64,000 bases of DNA from an uncultured Acidimicrobiales bacterium (GTDB lineage Bacteria > Actinomycetota > Acidimicrobiia > Acidimicrobiales > Ilumatobacteraceae): contig CAWDLV010000002.1 of assembly GCA_963803355.1 (NCBI GenBank), positions 146,829-210,828 of the forward strand, in the 5' to 3' direction. Shown here piece by piece: positions 16,277 through 59,467 of this stretch (its first letter is position 1; each line of letters starts with the position of its first letter). Under the pieces are notes generated by a model. It saw only the letters and a program-made list of their open reading frames with translations. It ran no database searches and was not told the DNA's origin. A program made the translations under genes and the position numbers.

Positions 16277-16432
16277 ATCGACATCGTCGCAGGTCGGGCC
16301 GCCCCGGCTGCGGTCTCGCGACCGAGGTTGGCAATCCGGCACCGATCGGCCGCGCAAGCAGGGAGCCTCGAGGCTCCCCGCTGGCGTCATCCCTCTACGT
16401 CGAGCGTCGGCGACGACTCCCTCGAGCGGCTG

Positions 16433-17040
16433 TCAGGCTGTCTTCTTGGCCGGCGCCTTCTTGGCGGCGGCCTTCTTGGCCGGCGCCCTCTTCGCTGTGG
16501 CCTTCTTCGCCGGCGCCTTCTTGGCTGCGGCCTTCTTGGCCGGCGCCTTCTTCGCCGCCGCCCTCTTCGCCGGCGCCTTCTTGGCCGTCGACTTGCGGGC
16601 CGGAGCCTTCCTCGCCGCCGCCCTCTTCGCCGGCGCCTTCTTGGCCGTCGACTTGCGGGCGGTCGTCTTCTTGGCGGTCGTCTTCCTGGCCGCCGTCTTC
16701 TTGGCCGGAGCCTTCTTCGCTGTGGGCACTGTGTCCTCCGTCAGGGTTGGGGTATCAGCTTCTCGTCGGGTTCAGCTCGGCCTTGAGCACCGAGCTCGCA
16801 CTGAACTTCATCGCCGTCGATTCGGGGACCGCGACGGGTTGCGCCCGTCTGGGGGTTGCGACCGGTTCGGGCGGCTCGGGTAGTGGTGCTGAAGGAACCG
16901 AAGCCGGGCCACGAGACCTTCTCGCCGCTCTTCGCCGACGACACGACGATGTCGAAGAACGCGTCAACGGTCCGCTCCGCGTCTTGCTTCGTCGTGCCGG
17001 CCTTGTTCGCGATTGCCTCGATCAACTCGGCCTTGGTCAT
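16433..17040 (-). CDS. hupB: Histone-like DNA-binding protein HU (HupB/Hlp type) with a Lys/Ala-rich PAKKA-repeat C-terminal tail. It is interrupted by two apparent indels.
   Basis: The N-terminus is [33 protein letters not shown]...[21 protein letters not shown]. The C-terminal part of the HU fold ([23 protein letters not shown]) is in a second frame. The tail ([15 protein letters not shown]...[10 protein letters not shown]) is in a third frame. The RBS is GGAGGT. Confidence 0.8.
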
Positions 17041-17079
17041 GTTGGACGTCTACCTCCTGGATGCAGGGATGAAACTCAA

Positions 17080-17150
17080 GGGCATATGCGACAACGCGCG
17101 CGGCCACAAAGCAAGCATCCTGATAGTTGCATTTGCAATCATGGTTCTTG
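17080..17150. promoter_or_regulatory. AT-rich divergent promoter region between hupB (-) and the DUF429 gene (+), containing the palindrome TTGCAnTGCAA.
   Basis: There is a local GC drop (catcctgatagttgcatttgcaatcatggttcttgacg) and TTGCAT/TTGACG -35-like hexamers. It sits between two divergent starts. Confidence 0.3.
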
Positions 17151-17176
17151 ACGACGATCCGCGACCCCTCGCGTGG

Positions 17177-17882
17177 ATGATCCGTTCCGTGTCGAGAGCC
17201 CAACGTGGACACCGAGGAGCCACCTCCGGAACCATCGTCGGCATCGACGGCTGCCGCTCGGGCTGGGTCGTGGCCGGCGCGGAAGACGTGTTCGTGGTCG
17301 AGCGGCTGGACGTGATCGTTGCTGATGCAACTAGTCACCCTTGTCGGGGTTGACATGCCGATCGGACTACCGGAGTCGTGGGGTCGCCCGGCGGACGACG
17401 CCGCCCGCCGATTCCTCGGCCGGCGCGCCTCGACGGTGTTCCCGACTCCGCCCCGATCGCTGCTGGAGGCCACGACTTACGACCAAGCCAACGCGCTGTC
17501 CCGGCGGGAGCTCGGTCGGGGTCTGTCGCGCCAGACGTTCAACCTGTTCCCGAAGATCCGCGAGGTCGACGCGCTCATGGGCCCTGAGCACCGGTCGAAC
17601 GGCTGGTCGAGATCCACCCGGAGTGCGCCTTCGCGGTCATGGCCGGGCAAGCCCCTGCCGCCGAAGCGGACGGCCGACGGGGCGCCGGCTCCGGTGCGAG
17701 CTGCTCGCGGCTCCGGTACGGCGGAGTCGTCCATCACCGACCACTGCGGCGCTCAGCTGGACGACGTGCTCGACGCCTACGCCGTGCTCTGGTCGGCCGA
17801 GCGCTTCGCTCGCGGCGAGCACGTGTCCACGGGCCGGTGGAGCTCGACCGGCTCGGGCTTGCCCATGCGGATCGTCACGTGA
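17177..17882 (+). CDS. DUF429 (predicted RNase H-like) domain protein, frameshifted as sequenced.
   Basis: The motif IVGIDGCRSGWVVAG is present. It continues in another frame (VGVDMPIGLPESWGRP...FNLFPKIREVDALMGPEHR) and a third (GKPLPPKRTADG...DAYAVLWSAERFARGEHV). Confidence 0.6.
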
Positions 17883-18292
17883 GGGCGGCCCGGATGCGCG
17901 CCGCGTACGTCTGCCATCTCAGCCGCGCTCTCGTAGCGGACCCGGGGCCAGAAGAAGCCGCGCAGCCCGTCCTTGCGCCGGCGGGGGACGACGTGGACGT
18001 GAAGGTGGGGCACGCTCTGGCTGACGACGTTGTTCATGGCGACGAAGGACCCGTCGGCCTCCATGCCCGGCTTGCACCGCGACTGCGACCCGCTGCACCC
18101 GCTCGAAGAAGGGGCCGACGGCGGCCACCGGAAGATCGGCCAGCGTCTCGACGTGCCGTCGGGCACGACCAGCACGTGGCCCTTGAACACCGGGCCGGTG
18201 GTCGAGGAAGGCGCCACGGCCGCGTCGTCGGAAGCACCATCTGCCGCGGTCGCTGCCGCCGCCAGCACCTCGCAGAACACGCACGACGCCAT
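17875..18292 (-). CDS. HIT family hydrolase, frameshifted as sequenced.
   Basis: The N-terminus is MASCVFCEVLA...GHVLVVP. A second frame carries RHVETLADLPVAAVGPFFERVQRVAVAV. The histidine triad region is NNVVSQSVPHLHVHVVPRR. The tail is convergent and overlapping with the DUF429 gene. Confidence 0.7.
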
Positions 18293-18310
18293 CGGCGCAG
18301 TATCCCGCCG

Positions 18311-19760
18311 ATGAACGCCCTGCGTACGACCCGCCGACCATCCACCATCGTCACCACAGGCACACGGCTAGGACAGCGGCCGTCGCCATCGAACCGGCCC
18401 ACCCTGGAGCGTGATGCCCCGAAGACCTACGTGCTGGACACCTCGGTCCTCCTGTCCGATCCGAGGTCCTTCACCCGTTTCGAGGAGCACGAGGTGGTGG
18501 TGCCGCTCGTGGTGCTCACCGAGCTGGAGGCCAAGCGCAACCATCCCGAGCTGGGTTGGGCGGCCCGGCAGGCGCTGCGGGCGCTCGAGGACCTCCGGAC
18601 CGAGCACGGCACGCTCGTGCGGCCGCTCCCGGTCAACGACGCCGGCGGCACGCTGCGGGTCGAGATCAACCACCAGGAGCTGGCCGGCCTGCCGGCGGCG
18701 CTGCGCGCGAGGCCAACGACCACCGCATCCTCGCCGTCGCCCGCAACCTGGCCAACGAGGGCGCCGACGTCGCCATCGTCACCAAGGACCTGCCGCTGCG
18801 GCTCAAGGCGAGCATCGTCGGCCTGGCCGCCGACGAGTACCGCAACGAGCTGGTGGCCGACACCAGCTGGACCGGGCTTCGTCGAGCTCGACGTCGAGAC
18901 CGCGCTCATCGACGAGCTGTTCGAGCGACCGCGTCGTCGACCTCGCGGACGGCTCGCGACCTGCCCTGCCACACCGGCCTCGCGCTCCACGCCGGCTCGC
19001 AGTCGGCGCTCGGCGCGGGTCCGCGCCGACAAGCGGGTGCACCTCGTGCGGACCGACGCCGCGGTCTTCGACGTCCGCGGCCGATCGGCCGAGCAGCGCG
19101 TCGCCATCGACCTCCTGACCGACCCCGAGATCGGCATCGTCAGCCTCGGCGGCAACGCCGGCACCGGCAAGAGCGTGCTCGCGCTGGCGGCCGGGCTGGA
19201 GGCGGTGCTCGAGGCCCGCACGCACAAGCGGGTCGTGGTGTTCCGGCCGCTGTACTCGGTCGGCGGCCAGGAGCTCGGCTTCCTGCCCGGGCAGCGAGGC
19301 CGAGAAGATGGGGCCCGTGGGCGGCCGCCGTCATCGACGCCCTCGAGTCGGTGATGAGTCCGAGGTGATCGACGAGGTGATCGGCGCGGGACCTGCTCGA
19401 GGTGCTGCCGCTCACCCACATCCGGGGCCGCAGCCTCACGGACAGCTTCGTCGATCATCGACGAGGCCCAGAACCTCGAGCGCAGCGTGCTCCTCACCGC
19501 GCTCAGCCGCCTCGGCCGGGGCAGCCGGGTCGTGCTCACCCACGACGTGGCCCAGCGCGACAACCTTCGCGTCGGCCGCCACGACGGCGTGGTCTCGGTG
19601 ATCGAGGCGCTCAAGGGCCATCCGCTGTTCGCCCACATCACCCTGACCCGGTCCGAGCGCTCCGCCGATCGCCGCCCTCGTGACCGACCTGCTCGACGGC
19701 CCCCGGCCGAGCGTCCCGAGCCGGGACCGGTCGGTCTCGGCTGCCCCTGGTTAGTCGCGA
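18311..19760 (+). CDS. phoH2: PhoH2 (N-terminal PIN domain + PhoH ATPase), with multiple frameshifts as sequenced.
   Basis: The PIN part is [36 protein letters not shown]. The PhoH Walker A is [25 protein letters not shown]. Later motifs are [11 protein letters not shown] and [22 protein letters not shown]...[16 protein letters not shown]. The pieces are spread over at least 5 frames. Confidence 0.75.
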
Positions 19761-19800
19761 TTTAGTAGTAAAGACGGTTGAGCGACCGGTCGGATGGTGC
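19751..19800. promoter_or_regulatory. AT-rich patch upstream of the whiB-like gene; a candidate promoter.
   Basis: The sequence ttagtcgcgatttagtagtaaagacggttgagcgaccggtcggatggtgcctctacagt contains TTGAGC and TACAGT-like hexamers. It has conspicuously low GC in a 70%+ GC context. Confidence 0.3.
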
Positions 19801-19892
19801 CTCTACAGTCGGGCCAGAGCGGCGAGAGCCACCCCCTCCCGGTTCCCGCCGCTCCTTGGCTCAACGTCCCGCGCAACCCCCCGGAGGCATCG

Positions 19893-20216
19893 ATGGGCTC
19901 CATCGAGGCGTACCAGACTCCGCTGCAACGACGGACCGGTCCGCAAGCCGGGAGCCGTGGATGGACCGTGGCGTATGTGGCGGGCCAGACCCAGCTGTTC
20001 TTCCCACCCCGAGCGGAGCGGCCCCAGGCCCGGGTGCGGCGCGAGGCCCAGGCCCGGCTGCTGTGCCGGCGCTGCCCGGTCGAGGACGAATGCCGGGGCT
20101 TCGCCCGCACGAACCGCGAGTACGGGCTCTGGGGCGGCGAGTCGGAGGAGGAGCGCCACCTGGCCGGGTTCACGGTCGCCGCGCCGATCGGGGTGCGGGC
20201 CCGGGCCACGGCCTGA
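19893..20216 (+). CDS. WhiB-family (Wbl) transcription factor-like protein.
   Basis: It has LFFP followed by AQARLLCRRCPVEDECRGFARTNREYGLWGGESEEER, the C-terminal three Cys of the Wbl motif. The position of the first Cys reads AYVAG (Tyr), which may be a substitution or an error. Confidence 0.6.
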   Translation: MGSIEAYQTPLQRRTGPQAGSRGWTVAYVAGQTQLFFPPRAERPQARVRREAQARLLCRRCPVEDECRGFARTNREYGLWGGESEEERHLAGFTVAAPIGVRARATA

Positions 20217-20284
20217 CACTGAGCCTCCGGCGGCGAGCGCGGTCCGTGCACTTCGTAGCACCCCCCGCGTAGGGTCGAGCCGTG

Positions 20285-21006
20285 ATGACCGGACAGCGGC
20301 TACCGCCCGCGGGTGGGCGGCGCTGGAACGCCCGCTCGCTGCCAGTCCGGCGGCTGCCAGTCCCTCGGCTGCCAGTCCGGCACCCTGGCCCACCCTCGCC
20401 GGCTCGCTGGCCGAGGCTCGGTTCGCGGTGATCGACGTGGAGACGAGCGGGCTTCGCCCGGCCGCCACCGCCTGCTGCAGGTCGGGGTGGTGCGGGTGCT
20501 CGGCGACGGCACCGTGATCGACCGGTGGGATACGCTTGCTGCGGGCGCCCTGGCGGCCCCTCGGCGGCCGGCGACATCCACGGGCTCTCCCGGCGGACGC
20601 TGCGGGGCGCGCCCCGCCTGCGCCGGTCGCCGGCCAGCTGGCCGCGGCGCTCGACGGCTCGATCGTCTGCGCCCACAACGCCGAGCTTCGACTGGCTGTT
20701 CGTGTCCCGCGCGCTCCGAGCGGGCCGGCTATCCGCCGCCGGACGTCGCTGCGCCTGTGCACCCTGCGGCTGTCCCGCTCGCTCGACCCGGAGCGGCAGC
20801 GGTCGCACCGCCTCGGCCGACGTCTGCCTGCGCTACAGCGTCCCCCTCATCCGGGCCCACGACGCCGCGGCCGACGCCGCCGCCACCGCGGCCTGCTCCC
20901 GCTCCTCCTCGCCGAGGCCGGCATCACCGACCGTGGCAGGCTCGCGCCGTACCTCGCCGGCACCACGACGGCCTGGCCGGCGCCCATCGCGCCGGCGACG
21001 CCCTGA
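20285..21006 (+). CDS. DnaQ-like 3'-5' exonuclease (DEDDh) domain protein, with multiple frameshifts as sequenced.
   Basis: Exo I is FAVIDVETSGLRP. The remaining motifs are in other frames: LLQVGVVRVLGDGTVIDRWDTL, LDGSIVCAHNAEFDWLFV, and Exo III DVCLRYSVPLIRAHDAAADAAATAA. The N-terminus carries an (AASP)x3 repeat from a 15-bp tandem repeat at 20334..20378. Confidence 0.55.
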
Positions 21007-21016
21007 TTCCCTCCGC

Positions 21017-21975
21017 TCAGCGGTAGCGGGCCAGCACCCGGGCCGCCGCCTCGGCGCCGACGTCGCGCAGCTCCGGCGGGTCGAGCACCTCCGCCTCGGT
21101 CCCAGGCGCAGCAGCAGGCGCTCCAGCCAGCGGCGTGGACAGCACGGGCAGCTCGAGCCACCAGGTCGTCGCCCGTCGGGCGTCGTGCTCGATGACCGGG
21201 TAGCGCTCGGTGATCCACGCCGCCGTCCGGGGGTGATCCGGAGCCGGGCGACCGCGGCGTCGGCGAACTGCGGCCAGCCAGTCCGGCGGCCTCGCTGGCC
21301 GGCGGACGGCCGGTCGTGACCGGCTCGCCCGTCTCCCGCAGCGCCTCGATGCGGTCGACGCGGAACCAGCGCTCCTCGCCCGCGCGTGTGGTCGACCGCC
21401 TGGAGGTACCAGTGGCCGCGGTCGCCGACCACGGCCAGGGGGTCGATCACCCGCTCGGTCCGCTCGCCCCGGTTGGCCACGAAGTACGTCACCGCCAGCC
21501 GGCTGCTCCCCGTCGACCGCCTCGCGGGCCGCGTCGAGGAACGGCACGGCGGCGACGTCGATCCGCAGCACGGGCGGCACCGCCGAGGCCCGCGCGCGAC
21601 CTTGTCGAGGGCGCGGGCCAGCGGCCCGGTCGGGCTCGGCGCCGGGCAGCTGCGAGCGCGGCCCGCCCGGCGGCCACGAGCGAGAAGGCCTCCCGCGCCG
21701 TCATGCCGCAGCGGGCGGGTGAAGAGGCGGGGCACGCCGGCGTAGATCACGTCGTCGTCGACGAACAGGTCGATCATCTCGTCGACGTACGGCGGGAGGC
21801 CACACAGCGCGGCGAGCTCGACGTCGTGGATCAGCTGCTCCCGGCTGACCCCGAAGCGGGCGGCGGCCTCGTGCGACCGGCACCTGCCCTCGCTCCATCA
21901 GCCACGGCAGCAGGATCAGCAGGCGGCGGAGCCGGGTCGCCGGCGGGCTCCGGGCCGCGGCGGCGCGGCCGGGCT
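21017..21975 (-). CDS. pafC: PafC-like WYL-domain transcriptional regulator, frameshifted as sequenced. The start coordinate is approximate.
   Basis: The HTH region is RLRRLLILLPWLMERGQVPV...MIDLFVDDDVIYAGVPRLFTRPLR. The WYL domain is VTYFVANRGERTERVIDPLAVVGDRGHWYLQAVDHTRG. The C-terminus (ELRDVGAEAAARVLARYR*) ends at 21017. Confidence 0.6.
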
Positions 21976-22957
21976 CACGGTGGGCCTCCGGCCGCCGCGC
22001 CGGCGGCCAGCTCCTCCAGCCAGCGCGACCATCTCGGCGCGGAGGTCCTCGGGCTCGAGGATCTCGGCGTCGTCGACCAGGCCCATCACCCACGACCGCA
22101 GCGCCCAGCGGTTGGCGTAGGGGACGGTGACGACGAGGTCCCCGCCCGGCCGGCGCTCCACGACCGCCGCCTCGCCCAGCTCCCGCACCACGGTCGGGCG
22201 CCTGCGCGGCGCTGATCCACACCCGCGCCGACACGACCTCGCCCTCGCCGACCATCTTGGCGTCGGCCGGGAAGGTGTCGGCCGGGTCGAAGCCGGCTGG
22301 GATCTCGAAGCGCGCCGCCCGGGCCGGGGACGACCGGCGCCCTCGATCCGGTCGACGCGGTAGGTCCGCACCTCGCTCGCGTCGTGGTCGAGGCCCATGA
22401 CGTACCAGAAGCCCGAGCGGGCCAGCAGGCCGTACGGGTCGAGGCGGCGGGGCCGGCCGCGGTAGCCGAAGGCGACCGTCGCCCGCTCGCTGTTGGCGGC
22501 GAACAGCTGGGGCAGGTCGGGCGAGGAGGCAGAGCGCGGCCACGACCGTCGGCGCGGCTCGCCCGCCGGCCGCCTGCGCACGTCGACCTCGCCGGCGGCC
22601 CGATCTTCAGCAGCGCATCCCCGCCCCAGTCCTCGCCCAGGTGGACGGTGGCCACGGCCAGCTGCAGGGCCCGCGTCTCGTCGTCGGTCAGGCCCAGGTC
22701 GGGCAGGGCGTAGCGGGACCGGTCGATCCAGTAGCCGGTGGCCCCGGCGCTGGTCGCCGCTCAGCACGGTCTGCTCCAGCGGCACGCCCTCGTCGCGGAG
22801 CTGCCGCTTGTCCCGCTCGAACGCGGTGCGCCGGGCCGGGTCGCGCGCCGGGTACTGGCCCCGCAGCTCGTGGGTGATCTCCTCGAGCGTCAGCGGGCGT
22901 GCGGGTCTCCAGCAGGAGCGCCACCAGGTTGGTGAGCCGCTCCAGCGGATCGGTCAT
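21976..22957 (-). CDS. pafB: PafB-like WYL-domain transcriptional regulator, frameshifted as sequenced. The boundary with pafC is approximate.
   Basis: The N-terminus is [22 protein letters not shown] second frame continues as [14 protein letters not shown]...GVPLEQTV. The WYL domain is TVAFGYRGRPRRLDPYGLLARSGFWYVMGLDHDASEVRTYRVDRI. The C-terminal part is LVVTVPYANRWALRSWVMGLVDDAEILEPEDLRAEMV. Confidence 0.6.
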
Positions 22958-23373
22958 GGACCGGGCGGGGACGGCGCAGCGCCGAGTGGTCGATCGCGTC
23001 GCGGACGACCTGCACGACGTCGTCCGCCGTGGCCCCGGGCGTGAGGACCGCCGGCGACGCCCTCGGCTCGGTCAGCCGCGGCACGTCCGGCTCGGGGATG
23101 ATCCCGCCCACGATCACCGGGATGTCGGCGCCCCGCTCCCGCACCTTCTCGCACGACCTTCGGGCGCCAGGGTCATGTGGGCGCCCGACAGCATCGAGAG
23201 GCCGATGGCGTCGACGTCCTCGTCGACCGCGGCGGCAGCCACCGTCTCGGGCGTCTGGAACAGCCCGGTGTAGATGACCTCGAACCCGGCGTCGCGCAAC
23301 ATGCGGGCGACGACCTTCACCCCGCGGTCGTGCCCGTCGAGGCCGACCTTCGCCACCAGCACCCGGTCAGCCA
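22890..23373 (-). CDS. Methylmalonyl-CoA mutase-type cobalamin (B12)-binding domain protein.
   Basis: [66 protein letters not shown] is the DxHxxG B12-binding motif. The continuation is [22 protein letters not shown]...[20 protein letters not shown]. There is one apparent indel. The 3' end is uncertain and may overlap the pafB start. Confidence 0.7.
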
Positions 23374-24250
23374 TCGGCTCAGCTTCCCGTAGTCGTAGAA
23401 GCCGCGGCCGGCCTTGCGGCCGAGGAGCCCGGCCTCGACCATCCGCGACAGGAGCGGCGGTGAGCGCGTAGAGCGGCTCCTTGAACTCCGTGTAGAGGCT
23501 CTCGGCCACCGCCATCGTCGTGTCGAGCCCGATGAGGTCGGCCAGGCGCAGCGGGCCCATCGGGTGGTTGCAGCCCTCGACCATGCCGGTGTCGATGTCC
23601 TCCGCGCTGGCGAAGCCCGACTCCAGCATGCGGATGGCCGAGAGGAGGTAGGGGATCAGCAGCGCGTTGACGATGAAGCCGGCCCGGTCCTGCGAGCGGA
23701 TCGACCCGCTTGTGCAGGACGTCGGTGGCGAAGGCCGACGCCCGCTCGGTCGTGACGCGGCGAGGTGAGCAGCGAGGTCACCACCTCGACCAGGCGCAGC
23801 ACGGGGACCGGGTTGAAGAAGTGGATGCCGATGACCTGCTCCGGCCGGCTGGTGGCCATGCCGAGCTTCATGATCGGGATCGAGGACGTGTTGGAGGCGA
23901 GGATCGCGTCGTCGGCCTCGACCACCTTGTCGAGCGCGGCGAACACCTCGGTCTTCAGCTGCTCGTCCTCCATCACGGCCTCGACGACCAGCTCCCGCTC
24001 GGCCAGGTCGGCGAGGTCCGTGGTCCAGCGGATCCGGGCCAGGGCGCCGGTCGCGCTCCTCCTCGGACATCTTCCCCGATCGGACGCCCCGGTCGAGGCT
24101 CGTCGTGACCCGGCGCTGACCGGCCTCGACGGCGCCGGCATCGACCTCGCGGACCATCACGTCGAGCCCGGCCCGGGCGCAGACCTCGGCGATGCCCGAG
24201 CCCATCAGGCCGCAGCCCACCACGCCGACCCGCTCGATCGTGTCGCTCAC
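23314..24250 (-). CDS. hbd: 3-hydroxybutyryl-CoA / 3-hydroxyacyl-CoA dehydrogenase, frameshifted as sequenced.
   Basis: The GTG start gives [31 protein letters not shown] (NAD-binding). A second frame carries [33 protein letters not shown]...[11 protein letters not shown]. The C-terminus is [57 protein letters not shown]...[13 protein letters not shown]. Confidence 0.75.
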
Positions 24251-24424
24251 TCGTGCACCGTCCAGTCCTGAGAGCCCGTGCGGCCTGGCACCGACTCCGT
24301 GTCGCGGGGACGCTAGCGCCGCCGCTGGCGGCGACCCGAGCCGCCCCGGCGCGGGCGCAACCCGAACGGCAGGATCATGAAGCGCGAGCTCAAGGACGAG
24401 CTCCTCGCCTGACGAGCCATGAGA

Positions 24425-24455
24425 GGGTCGGGCCACGCGAGCCGTGGCCCGACCC
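24425..24455. terminator. Strong GC hairpin, 13-bp perfect stem (GGGTCGGGCCACG-cgagc-CGTGGCCCGACCC), just downstream of the LIV solute-binding protein gene.
   Basis: The perfect inverted repeat lies 19 nt past the stop of the minus-strand gene. There is no T-tract, as is usual for actinobacteria. Confidence 0.55.
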
Positions 24456-24473
24456 TGCCCTGGCGGGTGCTCA

Positions 24474-25859
24474 GTCGGTGAAGGTGAACGTCTTGGCCGC
24501 GTCGGACTCGTAGTTCTTCACCAACGGCTTCAGACCGCCGTCGGTGTTGACAGTGGCCGGATCCATGGCGAAGACCGTGTTGGCGCGTGGTGCCTGCCGG
24601 ACGCCCGGATCACCGATCTTCTCGCTCGCGCCCAAGCCTTCGAAGTCGAGCTGGCCGAGGTCGTTGACGGCCTTGATGATGCCGTCGTGCGACAGGTCGC
24701 CGTTCTTCACCGCCTGCTCGAGCACCTGGGCAAAGGCCCACGCCTCGAGATAGCCGAACGCGAAGTAGATGTCGGGCTTCTGGCCGGCGTCGATCTTCGA
24801 GCTCTTGATGTCGTCGAGCATCTTCACCATGCCGGGGACTGACGTATCGCCCCAGAGCGGCCCCTCGCTCATCAACCAGTAGTGGGCCTTCATGTACGGG
24901 GCGAGCGGGGTGGCGAGGAACAGTGACACGAACGTCGGCGACTGGGCGATCCACTGCGGGTTGAACTGGGCCTGGGCGGCGCGACCGAGGATGCCGGCTG
25001 TCTCCGTCGGCAGGGACGTGAGCCACACCATGTCGCACTTGCCGTTCTTGAAGGCGTTGATCTGGGCCGTGAAGTCCTGGTCGCCCGGCTTGTGGGTCTG
25101 CTTGACCGCGATCTTCACCCCGAGCTGCTGGGCCGCGTACTCGAGTCCTTGCTCGCCGGCCTGGCCGTAGGCCGTGTCGTACACCATCGAGCAGACGACC
25201 TTGTCCTTGCCGTTCTTCTCGACCCAGTAGGAGAGGCCGTTGGCGGCCTGGATCTGGTAGGGCGCGAGGATGGGAAGAAGGTACTTCTCCTTCTGCCAGA
25301 TGCTATCGAGGGTGGCCGGCCCCACCAGGAGGTGGTCCTCGTTCAGGCTCTGCAGCAGGGCCTGGACCATGGGCGTGCCGATCACCTGCACGTAGCCGGC
25401 CACCTTGTCCTTGGTGGCGCCATACTGCTTGACCGTCTCGGCCACGTCGTACTTGGTGTCGCCCTCGACGAGCTGCACCTTGTACTTGCCGCCGACGCCG
25501 CCCTTGGCGTTCAGGGCCTCGAAGAAGACCCGGTTGCCGTTGGCGATGGGGATGCCGATCGGCGCTGCAACCGGGCCGCTCAGCGCCGTCAGCAAGCCAA
25601 GCTTGATGGTGGTCCCGTCGAAGCCGGGGACCGGGGTCGGCGCGGCGCCGCCGCCGCCAGCGGTGGTGCCCGGCGCGGCCGTGGTGGCGCCGCCGGCGGT
25701 GGTGCCCGGCGCGGCCGTGGTGCCGGCCGCGGCGGTGGTGCCCGGCGCGGCTGCGGCTGTGGTGCCCGAGGACGAGCCGCCGCTGCTCCCGCAGCCTGCC
25801 GCGACGAGGGCCAGGGCGAGGCCGATGCCGGCCACGTTCAATGCTCGTGTAGATCGCAT
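24474..25859 (-). CDS. Branched-chain amino acid (LivK/PBP1 type I) ABC transporter substrate-binding lipoprotein.
   Basis: The ATG start gives [28 protein letters not shown], a lipobox signal, followed by a Thr/Ala/Gly linker. LivK-family periplasmic binding domain conservation is present. It is the last gene of the livFG-...-livHM operon. Confidence 0.85.
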
Positions 25860-25938
25860 GCCAGTGATTCCCCCTTGGGGTTCGGTGGATGGTGCTTGGT
25901 TGTTGTGGGGTCGTGCGGGCATCGCCAGGTGATGCCGG

Positions 25939-48850: not shown

Positions 48851-48863
48851 GGCGGCCGGACCG

Positions 48864-49424
48864 TCAGATCACGGCCGCTTCGCTGGCGGCGGCGACCGCG
48901 AGGCCGTCGACCAGGTCGTTCATGGGATCGCCGCTGTGCCCCTTGACCCAGCCGAACGACACATCGTCGCGGACGCCCACGAGCTCGATCAGCGGCTCCC
49001 AGAGGTCGCGGTTGGCGATCGGCTGGCGCCTCGCGTTCACCCAGCCCCGACGCAGCCAGCCCTCCCACCAGCGGTCGCGGAAGCAGTTGACGACGTAGGT
49101 CGAGTCCGACATCACCACCAGCGGACCGGTCAGCGCTCGTACGGCCTCGAGGGCGGCCCTGATCTCCATGCGCTGGTTCGTGGTGCGCCGCTCGCCGCCG
49201 CTCGCCGACGGCACGCCCGCCGGCGCCACCGCCCATGCCCATCCGCCCGGGCCCGGGTTCCCCGAGCAGGCCCCGTCCGTGTACACCACGACCGGCGCCG
49301 AGCCCGCCGGCGCCGAGCCCGCCGGCCCATGAGCCGCGGGCGCAGCGGGCCGAGGCACAGCGGGCCGAGGCACACTGGGCACGGCGGGCGTAGCGCGCCT
49401 GGGAGCAGCGGGCACGTCGGACAT
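48864..49424 (-). CDS. rnhA: Ribonuclease HI with a Pro/Ala-rich N-terminal extension.
   Basis: The motif is VVVYTDGACSGNPGPGGWAWAV...RTTNQRMEI...SDSTYVVN...WVKGHSGDPMNDLVDGLA (the RNase H DEDD motif). The N-terminus is PAVPSVPRPAVPRPAAPAAHGPAGSAPAGSAP. Confidence 0.85.
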   Translation of the reverse strand: MSDVPAAPRRATPAVPSVPRPAVPRPAAPAAHGPAGSAPAGSAPVVVYTDGACSGNPGPGGWAWAVAPAGVPSASGGERRTTNQRMEIRAALEAVRALTGPLVVMSDSTYVVNCFRDRWWEGWLRRGWVNARRQPIANRDLWEPLIELVGVRDDVSFGWVKGHSGDPMNDLVDGLAVAAASEAAVI

Positions 49425-49555
49425 CCGGGCATCCTGGCACCTGGCGTGAGTCGACGGCGATGGGGCCGGGTGGATGGCGGGCCCACCTGCCGGTCCTCGC
49501 GCTGAGGCCCGCGTGCCCCGCCTAGCGCGTTGGTCTGAGCCGATCCGGTGCGAGA

Positions 49556-52285
49556 ATGGGCCGCATGATCTTCGACGGGTTCGTGCACCAGCTCCCCGAC
49601 ATCGATCCCGAAGAGACCCAGGAGTGGTTGGACTCGCTCGACGCCGTCGTCGACCGCCACGGCAAGACCCGCGCCCGCTACCTGCTCTCGTCCCTCCTCG
49701 ACCGCGCCCGCGAGCTCCAGGTCAGCTTCCCGGCCACGGTGTCCACGCCGTACATCAACTCCATCCCGCCCGAGGAGGAGCCGTGGTTCCCGGGCGACGA
49801 GTACGTCGAGCGCCGCATCCGGGCCTTCATCCGCTGGAACGCCGCAGTGATGGTGATCAGGGCCAACAAGCAGGCCGAGGGGATCGGCGGCCACCTGTCG
49901 ACGTTCGCCAGCTCGGCCAGCCTCTACGAGGTCGGCTTCAACCACTTCTTCCGGGGCAAGGACGACGGACAGCCCGGCGACCACATCTACTTCCAGGGTC
50001 ACGCCACGCCGGGCATCTACGCCCGGGCCTTCCTCGAGGGTCGACTGACCGAGGACGACCTGGACCACTTCCGCCGGGAGATCGGCCGCACCGGACTCAG
50101 CTCGTACCCCCACCCGAGGCTGATGCCGGAGTTCTGGGAGTACCCGACGGTCTCGATGGGCCTCGGCCCGATCACCGCCATCTACCAGGCCCGCTTCAAC
50201 CGCTACCTCCACAACCGCCGCCTCGACGACACGTCAGCGGCTCGCGGGTCTGGTGCTTCCTCGGCGACGGCGAGTGCGACGAGCCCGAGACCCTCGGTGC
50301 GCTGTCAGCTGGCGTCACCGCGAGAAGCTCGACAACCTCGTCTTCGTCGTCAACTGCAACCTCCAGCGCCTCGACGGCCCGGTCCGCGGCAACGGCAAGA
50401 TCATCCAGGAGCTCGAGGCGTCGTTCCGGGGCGCGGGCTGGAACGTCATCAAGGTCGATCTGGGGCTCCAAGTGGGACGAGCTGCTGGCCAAGGACAAGG
50501 ACGGCGTGCTCCTCAACAAGATGAACACCACCGTCGACGGCGAGTTCCAGCGCTACACGGTGGAGTCCGGGCGCCTACATCCGCGAGCACTTCTTCGGGC
50601 CGGACCCCCGCCTGCGCAAGCTGGTGGAGCACCTGTCCGACGACGAGCTGCGCTGGCTGCCCCGCGGCGGCCACGACTACCGAAAGCTCTACGCGGCCTA
50701 CAAGTCGGCCACGGACAACCTGGGCAGCGGCGCGCCGACCGCCATCCTGTGCAAGACGATCAAGGGCTGGACGCTCGGTCCGGAGATCGAGGGCCGCAAC
50801 GCCACCCACCAGATCAAGAAGATGAGCGGGCCGCAGCTCCGGGTGCTGCGGGACCGGCTCTACCTGCAGGAGGAGATCCCCGACGACGTCGCTCGACGGC
50901 GACGATGCCGCCGTACTACCGGCCGCCCGAGGACTCGGTGGAGTACCAGTACATGGTGGAGCGGCGCAGGGCGCTCGCCGGCTCGCTCCCCCGCCGCGCG
51001 CTGCGCACCCGGCGGCCGCTCACCCTGCCCGCCGACACGGCGTTCAAGGAGGTGCAGGCCGGCTCGGGCGGCCAGTCGGTGTCGACCACGATGGCCTTCA
51101 CCCGCCTGGTGCGGAACCTGGCCCGCGACCACGGCGTTCGGCGCAGCGGGTCGTGCCGATCATCCCGGACGAGGCCCGCACGTTCGGCATGGACGCGCTG
51201 TTCCGGGAGATCAAGATCTACGCCGCCGCAGGGCCAGAAGTACGAGCCCGGTCGACGCCGACCTGCTCCTCTCCTACACCGAGTCCGCCGACGGCCAGAT
51301 CCTCGAGGAGGGCATCACCGAGGCCGGCGCCATGTCCAGCTTCATCGCCGCCGCGCACCAGCTACGCCACCCGGGGCGTGCCCATGGTGCCCTTCTACAT
51401 CTTCTACTCGATGTTCGGCTTCCAGCGGGTGGGCGACCTCATCTGGCAGGCCGCCGACATGCCGGGCCCGAGGCTTCCTGCTCGGCGCCACCGCCGGGCG
51501 CACCACGCTCCTCGGCGAGGGCCTGCAGCACCAGGACGGCCACAGCCTGGTCCTGGCCTCGACCGTGCCGCCGTGCCAGGCCTACGACCCGGCCTTCGCC
51601 TACGAGATGGCCACGATCGTCCGCCACGGCATCCAGCGCATGTACGGGCCCAACCCGGACGACGTCTTCTACTACCTGACGCTCTACAACGAGAACTACC
51701 CCATGCCGGCCATGGCCGAGCGGCGTGGAGCAGGGCATCGTCGACGGCCTCTACCGGTGGGCCGAGGCGCCGGACGGGCCGTCGAAGCACGCCACCCTGC
51801 TGTTCTCCGGCGTCGGCCCAGGGCGCGGCCCGGCAAGGCGGCCGAGGAGCTGGCCGAGCACTACGACGTCGGCGTCGAGCTGTGGTCGGCCACCAGCTAC
51901 AAGGCGCTGCGGGACGAGGCGCTGGCCACCGAGCGCATGGAACCGCCTCCACCCCGGGCAGGAGCAGCGGGTCCCGCTCGTGCGCCGGCTGCTCGGCGAG
52001 GCGCCGGGCCCGATCGTCGCCGTCACCGACTTCATGAAGATCGTGCCCGAGCAGGTGGCCCGCTTCCTGCCCGACCGCCTGTTCATCCCGCTCGGCACCG
52101 ACGGCATGGGCCGCTCGGACACCCGCGAGGCGCTGCGCCGCTTCTTCGAGGTCGACGCCGGCCACGTCGTCGTGGCCGTGCTCGCCGGCCTGGCCGAGCA
52201 GGGCGAGGTCAAGGCCGAGGTCGTCGCGGAGGCCATCGCCCGCTACGACATCGACCCCGACGCGGTGAACCCGGCCGCACCCTGA
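49556..52285 (+). CDS. aceE: Pyruvate dehydrogenase E1 component (homodimeric AceE type), with many frameshifts as sequenced.
   Basis: The N-terminus is [58 protein letters not shown]. Downstream segments lie in several frames: [92 protein letters not shown], and the C-terminus [13 protein letters not shown]...[21 protein letters not shown]. Confidence 0.8.
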
Positions 52286-52347
52286 GCCGGCGCACCCGCG
52301 CGGACTGCGGCCGGCCGCCACGGCGTCGGCGCGCGACCTCCCCGCAC

Positions 52348-52367
52348 GGCCACCGAGGCCGGTGGCC
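52348..52367. terminator. GC hairpin GGCCACCG-aggc-CGGTGGCC downstream of aceE.
   Basis: The 8-bp perfect stem lies about 60 nt after the aceE stop and upstream of gmd. Confidence 0.4.
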
Positions 52368-52392
52368 CGGGGCGACCCTGTGCCACGGGTAG

Positions 52393-53426
<1,034 letters not shown>

Positions 53427-53520
53427 AGCGCACCACCCGGCGGCGCGAACGTGGGCCGGGAGAGGGGCCGCGCTCCCGTGCGGGCGCGGAGGTCACCGGT
53501 ATGCTCGTCCGCCGATCGCC

Positions 53521-54870
53521 ATGACCGGATCTGCGCCCATGTCCTCGCCCATCGACGTCGACGCCACCGTGATCTCGCCCGACGAGCTCGTGATGCGCGT
53601 GCAGTCGCTCCTGGCGTCGACGGACCGGGCTGGTGCGCCAGCAGTGACGAACGTGTCGCGGACGCTCGTGCACGCGCGAGGCACTCCGGTCGACTCCGCC
53701 CGCCAGCGCGCTCATGCGCTGCACCAGCGGTACAACCTGCTGCACACCCCTGAGATCACCGCCGGCGATGGGCCTCGAGGTCAAGCCACCCGCTTCACCA
53801 AGCGCGCCGTTCGCAAGCTGACCGGTTGGTACGTCGAGCCGCGCTGGACGGTCCAGACCGACTTCGATGCCGCGACGGCGTGGGCGGCGACCGACGTCGT
53901 CCTCGCGCTGGAGCAGCTGGAGGCCGAGGTCCACCGGCTCACCCAGTCCGTGACGGACGTGGCGACCTCAGTGACGGACGTGGCGAGCGAGCAAGCGCGG
54001 ATCCGAGTGGAGGTCAAGGGCGTCGCCGAAGCCGTCCACGAGCGCCATGATGGCGAGCTGGGGAGCCTCCGCTACGACGTCGCCGACCTCAATGCCGCCA
54101 TCGGCACCGTCGCCGCCCGGCTCGAGACGGTGCGTCGCCAGCTCACAGCCGCCGGCGCGTTCGAGGGCACGCAGCCGCCACCGATGCCCGAGGCCTACAG
54201 GGTGCCAAGCGTGGACTACTCCCGCTTCGAGGACCAGTTCCGGGGTTCGTCGGCCGAGCTCGCCGAGAACGCAGCGCGCCGTACCTCCCGATCTTCGGGG
54301 ATCCCGCCGAGCGCCCGCGCATCGCCGACCTCGGTTGCGGGAGGGGCGAGATGCTCAAGCTGCTCGAGGCAGAAGGCTTCGAGCCGGTCGGCGTCGAGAC
54401 GGACTCGGACATGCTGGAGCTTTGCCGGAGCCAAGACCTCAACGTGGTCGAGGCGGATGCGACGCTGTGGTTGCAGTCCCTCGAGCCGGACACGCTCGAC
54501 GGCATCTTCTGCGCCCAGGTGATCGAGCACCTCCCGGTCAGCTCGCTGCTCAGCCTCGTCGCGGCCGCACGCCGCGTGCTGAAGCGCGGTGCGCCGATGG
54601 TGCTCGAGACGATCGACCCCCGTTCGGCCTTCGCGCTCGGAAACTGGTTCTACGCCGACCTCTCTCACGTCCGACCGGTGTACCCGCCGACGCTCGCCTT
54701 CTTGTGCGAGAGCAACGGCTTCTCGGAAGTCGAGATCCTCCCCCGAAGCCCGCACCCCGCGCTGCAGCTCCTCGACGGACTGCCCGACGACCCCACCGGA
54801 CACGCCGATCAAGCCGCTGCTGGAGACCGTGTTCGGCTACCAGGACTACGCGGTCGTCGCTCGAAAGTGA
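53521..54870 (+). CDS. N-terminal coiled-coil / C-terminal class I SAM-methyltransferase protein; a candidate glycan chain-terminating methyltransferase. Two apparent indels.
   Basis: The N-terminal half is heptad/coiled-coil-like (ALEQLEAEVHRLTQSVTDVATSVTDVASEQARIRVEVKGV...LNAAIGTVAARLETVRRQL). The C-terminal methyltransferase is IADLGCGRGEMLKLLEAEGFEPVGVETD...DGIFCAQVIEHLP...RGAPMVLET. It ends ...FGYQDYAVVARK*, overlapping the next start (GTGA). Confidence 0.6.
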
Positions 54871-57050
54871 CCGAACGCCCGAGCGCTGTACACCAGTTCC
54901 ACGCCGGGACCGCTGAGGGTGACGCTGTCACCCAGCAGATGCTGAGCATCCGGAGGCGACTGCGGGGGCTCGGCTACCGGTCCGACGTGTACGCGCTGCA
55001 CATCCCGCCGGCGCTCTCCGACCAGATCCGACATCTGTCGACCTATCAGGGCTCGCCGAACCAGGTGCTGCTCCTCTACCACTCGATCGGCAACGAGGCC
55101 CTCGAGCAGCTGCGCCGGCTTCCGGATCGGAAGATCCTCAGCTACCAGAACATCACGCCCGAGGAGTACTTCGCCAGCGAGCACGTGCGGCGCGCCGTCC
55201 GCCTCGGGCGAGCGCAGCTCAAGGAGCTGCCGTCCATCGGTCGACGCCGCCATCGCCAACTCGAACTACTCCCGGCGAGAGCTCCTGGCCGCCGGCTTCG
55301 AGCGGGCCGAAGTGTTGCCGGTCCAGACCCAGTTCGGCCGGTACGCGTCGGGAAGGGGCAAACGAGCTCGGAACCGTGATTGGCTGACGGTCGGACGGCT
55401 GGTCGGCAACAAGTGCCATCACGACATCATCGCCGCCTTCGGCGTGTACGCGAACGCCTTCGACAACCGGGCTCACCTTCACCTGGTCGGCGACCCATCG
55501 GATCGGGCCTACGTACTCGAGCTGCGCGAGCTTGCGGCCCAGATGGACGTGGCCGACCGGGTCGTGCTCTGGGGCAAGATCCCCGAAGGCGACCTGATCG
55601 AGCGCTACTCGACCGCGGGCCTCTACCTCTCGCTGAGCGAGCACGAGGGATTCGGGGTACCGCTCCTCGAGGCCATGGCGGCCGGGCTTCCCGTCATCGC
55701 CTATGGCGCCGCTGCGGTCCCAGAGACACTCGGCGGGGCGGGGGTGGAGCTGCACACCAAGGAGCCGTCGTTCGTCGCCGGCCTGGCGCACACCATCCTC
55801 GGCGACGAGGCACTCGTGCAGAGGATCCTCGACCGGCAGGACGCGCGGCTGGCGCAGCTGGCCGCCTTCGACGTCGACGCCACGCTGACTCGCTCGATCC
55901 AGCGTGCGTGCGGAACCAAGCAACCAACTCGCGTCCAGGTCCAGGGACCGTTCGAGACGACGTACAGCCTGGCCGTGCTCAACCGCAACCTCGCGCTCGC
56001 CCTCGACGACCTCGACGACATCGAGGTCTCGTTGTACGCCACGGAAGGACCCGGCGACTACACGCCGGACCCTGCGGATCTCCAGCGCCATCCGGTCGCG
56101 GCCCGCCTGCACGCGAGCGCCAGGACGACGCCCTACCCCGACGTGACGATTCGCCAGCTCCACCCGCCCCGCCTCGCCGACGCACCCGGCGGCATCCGCT
56201 GCCTCTACTTCGGCTGGGAGGAGTCAGGGCTGCCCGCGGAGTACGTCGAGTCGTTCAACGAGCACCTGGACGGCATCGGCGTGATGTCGACCTACGTCGC
56301 CGAGCTCCTGCGCTCGGCCGGCGTGACAGTGCCTATCAGCGTGACGGGCGTCGGCGTCGAGCCACCGGTCCCCGACGGGCCGCTGCCCCGCCAGGCGAAG
56401 GACCGCAAGGGCTTCGTGTTCCTGCACGTCAGCTCGGCCTTCCCGAGGAAGGGCATCGATCTGCTGCTCGCAGGCCTACTTCGACACCTTCACCGCCAAC
56501 GACGACGTGACCTTGCTGCTCAAGACCTTCCCGAACCCGCACAACGAGGTGGCGGCGCAGCTGGCCGAGGCTCGCCGGCAGCACCCGAACCCCGGGCATG
56601 TCATCTGGATCGACGAAGACCTCCCGAGGGAGGCCATCGACAGCCTCTACGGCATCGCCGACTGCTACGTCCATCCGGCCCGCGGTGAGGGCTTCGGCCT
56701 GCCGGTCGCCGAAGCGATGCTGGCCAGCCTGCCCGTGATCACCGTGGCTCACTCGGGACTGAGGGAGTTCTGCGCCGACGAGACGGCACTGATCGTTCGC
56801 CATCGGATCGAGCCGGCGAGTACCCATCTCACCACACCCGGCTCGACGTGGGCGGAGCCCGACGTCGAGCACCTCGCCGAGCACCTCCGCGCCGTGTACG
56901 ACTGCCCGGACGCTCCGGACATCAGAGCCCGCACCGCGGCTGCGAAAGCCGCCATCGAAGACCGGTTCTCGTGGGACGCGGTCGGCCGTCCGATGGCGCA
57001 GCTTCATCGACGAGCTCCGGGCGCGCAGCGCGGACCACGTCGGTGTCGAT
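54868..57050 (+). CDS. Multidomain GT4 glycosyltransferase with two tandem GT4 modules (WbdA-like polymerizing glycosyl/mannosyltransferase). Frameshifted as sequenced; the 3' boundary is uncertain.
   Basis: Module 1 is VTERPSAVHQFHAGTAEGDAVTQQML...LSEHEGFGVPLLEAMAAGLPVIAYGAAAVPETL. Module 2 is RVQVQGPFETTYSLAVLNRNLALAL...HPARGEGFGLPVAEAMLASLPVITVAHSGLREF. The GTG start overlaps the methyltransferase stop. Confidence 0.6.
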
Positions 57051-58166
57051 GGTGTCCCCATGGAACTCGCGCTGCGGCATCGCCGAGTACACCGCTACAG
57101 CTGGTGGACGCCTTCGGCCACCGCGCCGAGGTCGACGCTCCTGGCGGATCGGGACGTGCAGGTCATCGATCTGGAGGCTGAGCTGCGCATCGCCCGGGTG
57201 TGGAAGGACCGCTGGCACCCGGACCTCGGGCCCCTCACCGCTGCTCTCCTCGCCTCTCCTTCAGAGCTGGTCCACCTCCAGTTCAACTTCGGGTTCTTCG
57301 AGCTGGGCGCGCTCGCGGGCCTCATCGAGGCGGTGCTCCCGCGGAAGCCGATCGTGATCACCTTCCATGCGACGGGAGACGTCCGCATCGACGACGAGAC
57401 CGTCAGCCTGCGGGACATCGTGGCCACACTGGCCGAAGGTCGATCTGCTCATCGCCCACCAGGAGGCGGACGTCGAGCGGCTGCGTTCGTCCGGCTTCAC
57501 CGAGAACGTGCGGTTGATCCCACAGGGCGCTCCGGGACCGCCGCCCGTGTCCCGAGAGGAGGCTCGCAAGGGCCTCGCGCTCGACCACCGCCCCACCGTC
57601 GCCACCTTCGGCTTCCTTCTGCCCCACAAGGGCACGCTGGAGCTGATCGAGGCCATCGACCTCTTGCGGTGGGACCAGCCGGACATCCTGTTGCTGGCGC
57701 CGTGCGCCACCCACCCGGACGCGAGCAGCGCGGCCTACCGCGAGCGCTGCGAGCGGCTGATCCGCGAACGGGGACTCGACGGGAACGTGGTCTTGGTCAG
57801 CGACTTCCTCGCCGATGACGCCGTCCGAACGCTGCTCGCGGCGGCCGACGTCATTGCGCTGCCCTACGCGGAGACACCTGAGTCCTCGAGTGCGGCCATG
57901 CGATTCGTCCTGGGGATCGGCGCGCCGGTCATCGCGACGAGCATCCGGATCTTCGACGACGTCAGCGAGGTGGTGCTGCGTACGCGGACGAACGCGCCCG
58001 AGGACCTGGCCCGGGCCATCCGAGAGGTCATCGGCTCCCCGGCGCTGGCCGCCGATCTGGCCGCCAAGGCAAGTGCCCTCGCCCTGGAGCTCGGTTGGCC
58101 CACGGTTGCCCGCTCCCACCTCGACGCCTATCGGTCGATTCTCGAACGGCGGCGGCGGCGCCGGGT
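57048..58166 (+). CDS. Third GT4 glycosyltransferase module. It is either a separate gene starting MVSPWNSRCGIAEYT, or the C-terminal module of a single 3-module polymerase.
   Basis: The N-terminus is MVSPWNSRCGIAEYTA...LVDAFGHRAEV. It continues FGFLLPHKGTLELIEAIDLL...ALPYAETPESSSAAMRFVLGIGAPVIAT (GT-B C-terminal fold). There are at least 2 frameshifts. Confidence 0.5.
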
Positions 58167-58182
58167 AGGAGCCCCCGCGTGC

Positions 58183-59467
58183 CTACGGGATGGACTTGGC
58201 CTCGATGGGCATCCAGACCAGGCCCGACGTGCGGTCGGGGCTGAGGATCTCGAACCACGTCCGCTGCTCGCTCCAGTCGTAGACGACCGTCTCGTCGTGG
58301 CTGTGGATGCCGATCGTGATCGGGAAGGTGCCATCGAGCAGAGGCACGGCGGCGACCTCGAAGATCACCTCCCCTGCGCCTGACATGGCCTTCACCGGCG
58401 TGCCAAGGATGTCCGTGTTCGTGCCAAAGATCGGCCGTCCGGTCGCGTGGTCGAAGATGCCGAGCCCGACGACGACGTCCTCGATCCGCTCCTTGGCCTC
58501 GTAGCCGATCCGGATCGTCAGCGGCTCGCCCGGCAGTAGGTAGCGCCGAACGTCGCGATGGGCGTGCTCCACCTCGATGTGGGTGATCCGCACCCGCAGG
58601 TTGCGCTTCGCCTCCTGCGCCGCACCGTGCGCGTGGGCCGAGGTCGGCTCGGCGACACCGTCCAGCACCGTGTGCGCCGCAAGCGTGGGCGTCGGATTCA
58701 CGTCCGCCTCGGCGTGTGCCCGGCGATCGAGCTCGTCTTCGAGCATGTGCTCCCGGAAGATGCGGATGGCGACTGCGGGCTCGTCGAATGCCGCCAGGTG
58801 ACCGTGATCGATGACCGCCACCTGATCGCAGATCTGGCGGAGCTGGTCAGCCGCGTGCGAGACCACGATGATCGTCCGGCCCTCGTCGCTGGAACCGCCG
58901 CACCCGTTCGAGACATTTGCGTTGGAAGTTCTCGTCGCCGACCGCCAGCACCTCGTCGACCAGCAGGATGTCCGGCTCCACGTTCACGGCTACGGAGAAC
59001 CCGAGGCGGACGAACATCCCGGACGAGTAGTGCTTGACCTGCTGGTCGATGAACTGCTCGAGCTCCGCGAACTCGACGATGTCATCGAAGCGGCGCTGGA
59101 GCTCGCGCTTGGACATCCCGAGGATGGCGCCGTTCATGAAGATGTTCTCTCGCCCCGTGAGCTCCGGATGCATCCCGGCGCCCAGCTCGAGCAGCGAGGC
59201 GATGCGACCTTGCACCCGGACCGTGCCCAGGGTCGGCTTCAGGATGCCGCCGATGAGCTTGAGGAGCGTGGACTTGCCGGAGCCGTTGTGGCCCATGAGG
59301 CCGAGGGTCGACCCTTGGTCGACCGCAATGGAGATGTCGCGGAGCGCCCAAAACTCCTCGGGGCGCGATCGGTCCCGATGCACGAAGCGCTCCTTGAGCG
59401 AGGTCCCGTGGTTGACGAGCTGGAAGCGCTTCGACACTCCGTCGACTTCGACGACCCGCGCGCCCAC
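58183..59467 (-). CDS. wzt: Wzt-type ABC transporter ATP-binding protein with a C-terminal glycan (O-antigen terminus)-binding domain. One apparent frameshift near 58860.
   Basis: The NBD has Walker A ([11 protein letters not shown]), the signature ([13 protein letters not shown]) and Walker B ([12 protein letters not shown]). The C-terminal about 150-aa beta-rich Wzt_C-like domain is [58 protein letters not shown]...[24 protein letters not shown]. Confidence 0.8.

Follow-up and report, generated by a model that had tools for sequence, protein, structure and literature searches.

Patchy single-base insertions interrupt conserved genes in an Acidimicrobiales metagenome contig and probably reflect consensus errors

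Residual insertions and deletions (indels) in long-read consensus sequences break genes; in Nanopore consensus these indels are mainly homopolymeric, and low-coverage bins need polishing (PMC9262707). The long-read metagenome-assembled genomes (MAGs) of Microflora Danica (MFD) are Nanopore-only and come from Flye --meta followed by a single round of Medaka (PMC12313526). Collapsing divergent haplotypes leads to unevenly distributed indel errors (PMC8445201), and PacBio continuous long reads (CLR) carry ~8% insertions, ~3% (3.2%) deletions, and 1.7% substitutions, with ~1% left after consensus correction (PMC7671305). We analyzed a 64-kb stretch of an uncultured Acidimicrobiales genome (contig CAWDLV010000002.1, positions 146,829 to 210,828; "the window" denotes this whole stretch) in which conserved genes, among them aceE, encoding pyruvate dehydrogenase E1, are split over several reading frames. 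With a probability of about 0.93, these frame breaks stem from errors of base calling or consensus in a deposited long-contig Acidimicrobiales MAG and not from gene decay. The genes beneath are intact and under normal purifying selection, and the locus holds no biological novelty.

Clustering and type of the frame breaks

Alignment to intact orthologues from syntenic relatives revealed ~160 frame-breaking events, nearly all of them insertions, in roughly 25 genes. The events were strongly clustered (index of dispersion 6.6, p ~1e-53). Three dense blocks (16.7-24.1, 35.5-40.95, and 50.23-53.35 kb) held 145 events in 15,970 nt, or 0.91 per 100 nt; the density from 53.35 to 58.1 kb was 0.19 per 100 nt, about five times sparser than in the dense blocks, and the remaining window had 0.018 per 100 nt, a ~50-fold contrast with the dense blocks. 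The second block ran from a first event at 35564 to a last event at 40920, and the third began in the middle of a gene, at 50235, after the event-free first 670 nt of aceE. Outside the dense blocks there were sparse events in GH38 (10872), Band7 (31544), YkuD (42914), GT2 (44128), and a small open reading frame (ORF) near 8070. In addition, Wzt was broken near 58.9 kb, with ABC_tran and Wzt_C in separate ORFs, and Wzm was broken near 59.81 and 59.84 kb.

In the 19 genes assessed for event type, we counted 112 single and 13 double insertions, 20 1-nt deletions, and three 2-nt deletions. The 11 dense-block genes whose references were at least 77% identical had 82 single and 10 double insertions, nine 1-nt deletions, and one 2-nt deletion, so that 102 bases were inserted and 11 deleted (~9:1). 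The deletion calls in these well-conserved genes are real, each leaving exactly one 2-nt codon with conserved flanks on both sides.

The G+C content of the window is ~70%, and wrong frames run on for hundreds of codons without a stop, so that ORF length is uninformative on whether a gene is intact; with wrong frames left open, a 972-aa ORF covers aceE in one frame and the tig ORF reaches 572 aa. Reading frames were followed with a plot of G+C at third codon positions (GC3) and with a seven-state Viterbi model of codon usage, for which clearly intact genes served as the training set. Both displayed dense frame switching on the same strand at ~16.4-24.3, 35.3-41.2, and 49.5-53.4 kb and long unbroken segments elsewhere. 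A noncoding call by the model at 20.2-21.4 kb arose because RNase T and pafC bear up to 17 events per kb there, and a plus-strand "gene" that it placed at 16440-16716 is a shadow cast from the minus strand by the C-terminal tail of hupB, which is rich in Lys, Ala, and Pro. Plain tblastn proved inadequate, extending through wrong frames at 40-50% identity in DNA of 70% G+C, and for this reason we replaced it with a purpose-written, frameshift-aware dynamic-programming protein-to-DNA aligner, which was applied to all reference genes. The main reference was the JGI metagenome contig Ga0673076_0000215 (73,445 bp; loci L005, L087, and L002), all of whose genes are intact and which is collinear with the window at 9.2-24.2, 31.2-33.3, and 35.4-53.4 kb. 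Two further references were L001 (ENA ERZ25039464, contig_59696; 93% DNA identity to the window in aceE) and L051 (MFD00962.bin.2.262, a 292-kb contig; 89% AceE protein identity to the window). For 53.5-60.4 kb, L001 and the stop-to-stop ORFs of L012 and L051 did not serve well as references, given the frameshifts in L001 itself and the abundance of shadow ORFs.

The damage is clearest in aceE, where 17 events add 18 extra bases. Read directly, the AceE text switches among the three plus-strand frames every 60-300 nt, and a three-way DNA alignment of the window with L001 and L002 contained 16 gap events, all of them insertions in the window lying in clean flanks. When the 18 bases were skipped, AceE was recovered over 900 of 900 residues, 93% identical to public protein P0001 and 90% to P0005; the stitched protein aligned over its entire length (100%) with full-length ~900-aa E1 proteins, of which the best hit was 90% identical. 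Besides AceE, about 20 genes were restored to 95-100% of reference length by removal of the indels. The corrected proteins (Hbd 90%, GMD 87-91%, Ppx 79%, and GH13 77% identical to their references) fell in the same range as untouched neighbors (GpsA 86%, PIG-L 83%, GT2b 84%). The corrected product of 54882-58167 is ~1100 aa long with three GT4-type glycosyltransferase modules, and since the stitched 1063-aa product can be aligned with ~1100-aa triple-GT4 proteins from one end to the other, this is one gene. Its family is widespread, with 2,542 representatives at E<=1e-30.

Event counts in the other genes were 4-5 in gmd, 7 in ppx, 11 in phoH2, 17 in pafC, 9 in pafB, 3 in the B12-binding subunit, 4 in hbd, 5 in HIT, 8 in DUF429, 10 in RNase T, 1 in whiB, 17 in GH13, 2 in AsnC, 11 in DUF305, 18 in the Zn-peptidase, and ~7 in the triple-GT4 gene; hupB was spread over three minus-strand frames, and a SAM-methyltransferase gene in the sparser zone had shifts near 54270 and 54796. 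No events were found in GpsA, CofC, PIG-L, DinB, the methyltransferase, GT2b, the HhH protein, DUF559, RNase H, or CBS. The mreB/C, ndk, folC, and clpX/P genes are intact ORFs, the proteins of the LIV operon gave full-length Pfam matches, and the lipase had one doubtful call, at 41344, where its N terminus is poorly aligned.

These results can be set against an earlier, sequence-only reading of the window, which had proposed a frameshift-aware protein-to-DNA alignment as a check; run here, that alignment confirmed the breaks and restored the orthologues. The split of aceE over several frames and the breaks listed in HIT, hbd, pafB/pafC, gmd, ppx, GH13, and GT4 genes were all found, with the GT4 fragments at 54.9-58.1 kb now joined in a single gene, and the genes named as clean (mreB/C, ndk, folC, clpXP, gpsA, the LIV operon, the lipase, and rnhA) were clean apart from the doubtful lipase call. 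The reading had also placed tig, hupB, and phoH2 in three to six frames each; hupB was in three and phoH2 had 11 events, and tig carries only a compensating pair of events and lies outside the range given. Its three broken blocks stood as strong clustering, with edges that needed refining, given the sparser stretch after 53.35 kb and the clean start of aceE. The intervening blocks, taken as intact, were essentially error-free apart from the sparse single events above. The events, described there as single-base indels, are indeed mostly single-base, but they are not generic indels, and their insertion dominance had gone unseen.

Table 1. Coordinates of the event-dense and clean segments, of individual broken genes, and of shift-made ORFs in the window
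Feature	Position (nt)	Strand	Content and events	Basis
Dense block 1	16700..24100	both strands	~70 events: hupB, DUF429, HIT, phoH2, whiB, RNase T, pafC, pafB, B12-binding mutase subunit, hbd	Viterbi, alignment to L005
Dense block 2	35500..40950		~55 events: GH13 alpha-glucosidase (-), AsnC-type regulator (-), DUF305 (+), Zn-peptidase (+), ppx (+)	Alignment to L087, L002
Dense block 3a	50230..53350	+	aceE from 50235 on, gmd (4-5 insertions)	MAFFT DNA alignment to L001, L002; frameshift-aware alignment
Sparser zone 3b	53500..58170	+	~9 events: SAM-methyltransferase, triple-GT4 gene	Alignment to P0375, P0376, P0377, P0494; frame junctions read directly
Clean control block	24250..35350		LIV-type ABC operon with AMP-binding ligase, Band7, CBS, EamA, DUF4333; single event at 31544	Pfam, alignments
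Clean control block	41200..50230		lipase, YkuD, GT2, methyltransferase, GT2, HhH, DUF559, rnhA, aceE 5' end; isolated events at 42914, 44128	
Wzt / Wzm	58180..60410	-	Isolated events	Pfam half-domains in different frames; alignment to L012, L051 ORFs
aceE (pyruvate dehydrogenase E1)	49565..52282	+	16 single insertions, 1 double insertion, 0 deletions	
phoH2 (PIN-PhoH)	18419..19703	+	9 insertions, 2 deletions; corrected identity to intact orthologue 88%	
GH13 alpha-glucosidase	35369..36948	-	14 single insertions, 1 double insertion, 2 deletions	
Triple-GT4 gene	54882-58167	+	Insertions near 55240, 56470, 56985, 57027, 57100, 57128, 57433	
tig	6397..7830	-	Compensating pair, outside the blocks	ORF translations; Viterbi path -0, -1, -0
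ORF from shift at 56470	55444..56688	+	Out-of-frame tail; product letter for letter public protein P0383	
Truncated AceE ORF	49565..50524	+	223 real residues and an out-of-frame tail; exactly public protein P0525	

The inserted bases and the public record

We placed each insertion by taking all positions whose removal gave an equally good best match to the reference, and for 98 insertions the inserted base was unambiguous. Sixty-nine of these (70%) equaled neither neighboring base, and 29 (30%) extended a run, fewer than the 44% expected for random insertion of uniform bases (p = 0.004) or the 51% expected for composition-matched bases (p = 3e-5). Only three of the 98 lay in runs of at least 4; events in runs were seen in a C6 at 36522, a T5 at 42914, and a G4 at 19311. 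The composition of the inserted bases tracked local composition (33% A+T over the 98 events); a uniform composition, suggested by the first 18 aceE insertions, was overturned by this larger set. There was no flanking motif at the insertions (at most 0.05 bits per flanking position), and no methylation-type motif, enriched junction k-mer, or dinucleotide-slip signature at the junctions. Insertions occupied all three codon slots (18/22/11, p = 0.16), and genes on the plus and minus strands were affected alike. The commonest slot was that between codon positions 1 and 2, and there was no enrichment beside third codon positions, contradicting a model in which two alleles are retained in tandem.

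Apart from the shifts, the broken genes looked like working genes. The ~4,900 corrected codons of the dense-block genes contained no stop codon, GC3 was 0.85-0.95 in the fragments, and codon bias was intact in every fragment. Divergence of aceE from L001 was lower in its dense part (6.5%) than in its clean part (10.2%).

Four ORFs that exist only through the shifts are exact public proteins: the two listed in Table 1 and the ORFs at 54351-55379 and 57060-57818, which correspond to P0527 and P0526. All four (P0383, P0525, P0526, and P0527) are held by NCBI and ENA, all lie on one 415,457-bp contig, and each is the singleton representative of its cluster in the public protein collection. The errors were therefore already present in the assembly as deposited and are not a later addition, and these ORFs should be regarded as spurious. 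All relatives that we found were MAGs or metagenome contigs of uncultured Acidimicrobiales or Ilumatobacteraceae; among those with a name, the closest is an MFD MAG from Nanopore data. Judged by this MAG-only neighborhood and by the length of the contig, the source would be a long-read metagenome assembly, in agreement with the long-read or metagenome assembly proposed from the sequence alone.

The window is not the only assembly affected. In the independent sister assembly L001, the triple-GT4 gene (9758-13066) has seven single insertions and one deletion, at sites that differ from those in the window; several L001 gene calls in this interval are shadow ORFs on the wrong strand. In the AceE cluster of P0001, the members P0127, P0128, and P0134, on ENA contigs of 108-271 kb, include truncated forms of 316 aa and 653 aa and a fused form of 1064 aa. 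These forms suggest that the same patchy frameshift problem affects other long-contig assemblies of this lineage, and the damage seems to belong to this type of data and not to a single organism.

Candidate causes of the insertions

We observed directly that the events exist, what type they are, how they cluster, that they are independent of gene structure, and that the public record contains them. If they are consensus errors, stretches of ~3-7 kb would bear ~1 spurious base per 100 nt, almost all as context-free single-base insertions, beside neighboring stretches that are essentially error-free. Such patches would be those with poorer consensus support, whether through low local read depth, a stitched second population of lower coverage, or failed polishing. 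The recovery of full-length proteins, the absence of any sign of relaxed selection, and a distribution that follows position are what we found for this explanation, and full-length restoration, the lack of stop codons, and normal divergence sustain the view, already taken in the sequence-only reading, that the breaks are technical and not pseudogenisation.

A change of closest relative at the edge of the aceE block bears on which of these support failures applies. Over the clean 670 nt at the start of aceE, the window lies at similar distances (10-13%) from L001, L051, and L002. From 50.24 kb on, it is sister to L001, with the window-L001 distance falling as given above (p = 0.003) and the L001-L051 distance rising from 9.0% to 12.2% across the edge. 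The start of the dense block at 50235 thus coincides with a change of lineage, which suggests that the consensus is a mosaic of two populations. If two related populations, one of them poorly supported, had been stitched or polished into one contig, such a change at the start of a block would be expected, and the switch points to a mosaic at least as much as to uneven coverage.

Some points weigh against consensus error. The lineage switch was shown at one block boundary only and could be a natural recombination breakpoint. The dominance of insertions and their depletion in homopolymers differ from the consensus profile usual for Nanopore data, the platform of the project that produced the closest relatives. 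One specific form, strain collapse in which both alleles of a single-nucleotide polymorphism are kept in tandem, would have accounted for inserted bases that differ from their neighbors but was rejected, as the insertions lie in locally invariant contexts. Finally, the technical cause is inferred from the sequence and its relatives.

One technical cause named in the sequence-only reading, beside uneven coverage, was homopolymer error, classically the run-length error of a consensus left unpolished after Nanopore, 454, or Ion-type sequencing. Nanopore MAGs are the nearest relatives that have names, a few events do lie in runs (the C6, T5, and G4 above), and the shift near 8070 stands beside a G5 run, as that reading had said, although this real shift is atypical and is not pinned to the run. 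The proposed comparison of shift sites with homopolymers went the other way overall: the events are not located in runs, with 69 of 98 insertions matching neither neighbor, 3 of 98 in runs of at least 4, and run extension rarer than random, and insertions exceed deletions 9:1 whereas homopolymer collapse gives mainly deletions. The context census largely refutes this mechanism, and we consider it very improbable as the source of most breaks. Corruption of the window after deposition, by simulated or accidental noise over a clean public record, would explain why the context-free, composition-matched insertions resemble simple simulated noise. This is contradicted by the four exact public proteins, which depend on shifts from 50235 onward, at 54.3-55.4 kb, at 56470, and at 57.06-57.8 kb, and the insertions shun neighbor-identical bases more than simple random insertion would, leaving it a far slighter prospect than homopolymer error.

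Biological causes fare no better. The shifts are present in the deposited sequence, which by itself is compatible with real mutations, such as a very recent insertion-biased burst or pseudogenisation in patches of a living or decaying population. Such a history would have to produce ~145 frameshifts while adding neither nonsense codons nor excess substitutions and keeping codon bias intact, and would leave about a third of the 64 kb dead, including aceE, ppx, gmd, and phoH2. Real bacterial gene decay has a deletion bias, the opposite of the insertion bias seen here; moreover, a patch boundary falls inside a gene, and a sister assembly has the same class of error at other sites. Because nonsense codons, excess substitutions, and deletion bias were all absent, we conclude that the frameshifts are not real decay, and we give real mutation only about half the slim chance of homopolymer error. 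Equally remote is a patch-wise process in real DNA, for example error-prone repair synthesis over several-kb tracts, with the dead tracts assembled before any other decay. Recoding that restores the frames, by programmed +1 frameshifting, translational bypass, or RNA-level deletion editing, has in its favor that nearly all events are +1, and nothing further. No slippery or stimulatory motif is shared or conserved (<=0.05 bits per flanking position) and no k-mer is enriched; genes would need up to 17 sites each, in random codon phase and absent from all orthologues (L001, L002, L005, L051, and L087), and the patches cross gene and strand boundaries. The lack of a motif, the many sites per gene, and their absence in all orthologues exclude programmed recoding for practical purposes, and it is the least probable of the explanations considered.

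Given that consensus error is the preferred explanation, the value of the finding is that of a quality-control flag on genes that are ordinary and intact in the organism. Coordinates, gene calls, and inferences of a "pseudogene" or "novel ORF" at 16.7-24.1, 35.5-41.0, and 50.2-58.2 kb are unreliable and need corrected frames, and ordinary checks of ORF length miss such damage at 70% G+C. At least four chimeric, shift-made proteins are already in public collections, a small case of database pollution. An insertion-dominated, homopolymer-poor signature together with a lineage switch at a block edge should be a useful diagnostic for mosaic or poorly supported MAG segments.

Neighboring genes and comparison with known systems

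The window carries an actinobacterial-type gene set (mreC, mreB, ndk, folC, clpX, clpP, tig, and onward in the ORF listing), and its host is an Acidimicrobiales lineage near Ilumatobacteraceae MAGs. Rfam and tRNA scans of the window gave no matches. In tig, the frame shifts by a net -1 near 7694, through either the loss of 1 nt or the gain of 2 nt, and is restored by one inserted base near 7582; between these two events ~37 codons are out of frame in an ORF that is still open. Since the Pfam Trigger_N match spans this segment, Pfam does not resolve the two events. The C-terminal tail of the trigger factor (6397-6560, minus strand) is a long, His/Asp/Glu-rich, unusual extension that is possibly metal-binding. 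Between tig and a gene for a CDGSH iron-sulfur protein lies the small, conserved-looking plus-strand ORF at 7966-8240 (DRVQAKVELPGVPEGH / GKVILANGFNWMRYRVRFTNGAELADLDERHL), whose one frame shift adjoins the G5 run.

In the first clean block, the segment between hbd and Band7 (24250-31100) is occupied by a LIV-type ABC operon in which an AMP-binding ligase is embedded; it was compared with L005 15075-16757 and L087 7628-12572 of the syntenic JGI contig. That contig has PhoD at this position. Its own LIV operon is located elsewhere and is only 30-50% identical to that of the window, so the two are different paralogous operons or islands. The ligase, used as a query in a metagenome scan, returned only loci of 29% identity. 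The large methylmalonyl-CoA-mutase subunit, which in the relative is a 543-aa protein beside CBS, is absent from the window (32997-33080), and the small B12-binding subunit beside hbd is kept (22983-23374).

Gene decay in Mycobacterium leprae and in obligate symbionts brings stop codons, excess substitutions, lost codon bias, and deletion bias, scattered genome-wide. The window is like these genomes in having many conserved genes frameshifted, but none of these marks of decay was seen. Haplotype or strain collapse shares the uneven, block-wise distribution, which here includes a block start with a switch of closest relative, and in published cases the frameshifts vanished once the haplotypes were separated (PMC8445201). 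There, errors adjoin allelic variants, whereas the insertions here lie in invariant contexts with no association with third codon positions.

Long-read assembly indels of the kind exposed by IDEEL-type tests (PMC9262707; Kastor, PMC12007338) are alike in splitting genes by single bases, in depending on local support, and in sending fragments, called as short proteins of their own, into databases. They differ in being concentrated in homopolymers in Nanopore consensus, in contrast to the ~90% insertions and homopolymer depletion found here. With PacBio CLR, the published raw ratio of insertions to deletions is ~2.5:1 compared with 9:1 here, and PacBio k-mers over-represent homopolymers. The likeness lies in errors that after consensus are insertion-dominated, with few substitutions, roughly uniform, context-independent, and at a residual of ~1% (PMC7671305). 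By this comparison, with insertions far outnumbering deletions, no homopolymer preference, and a residual of ~1%, the profile of the window would resemble PacBio-CLR-type consensus errors more closely than those of classical Nanopore, 454, or Ion data.

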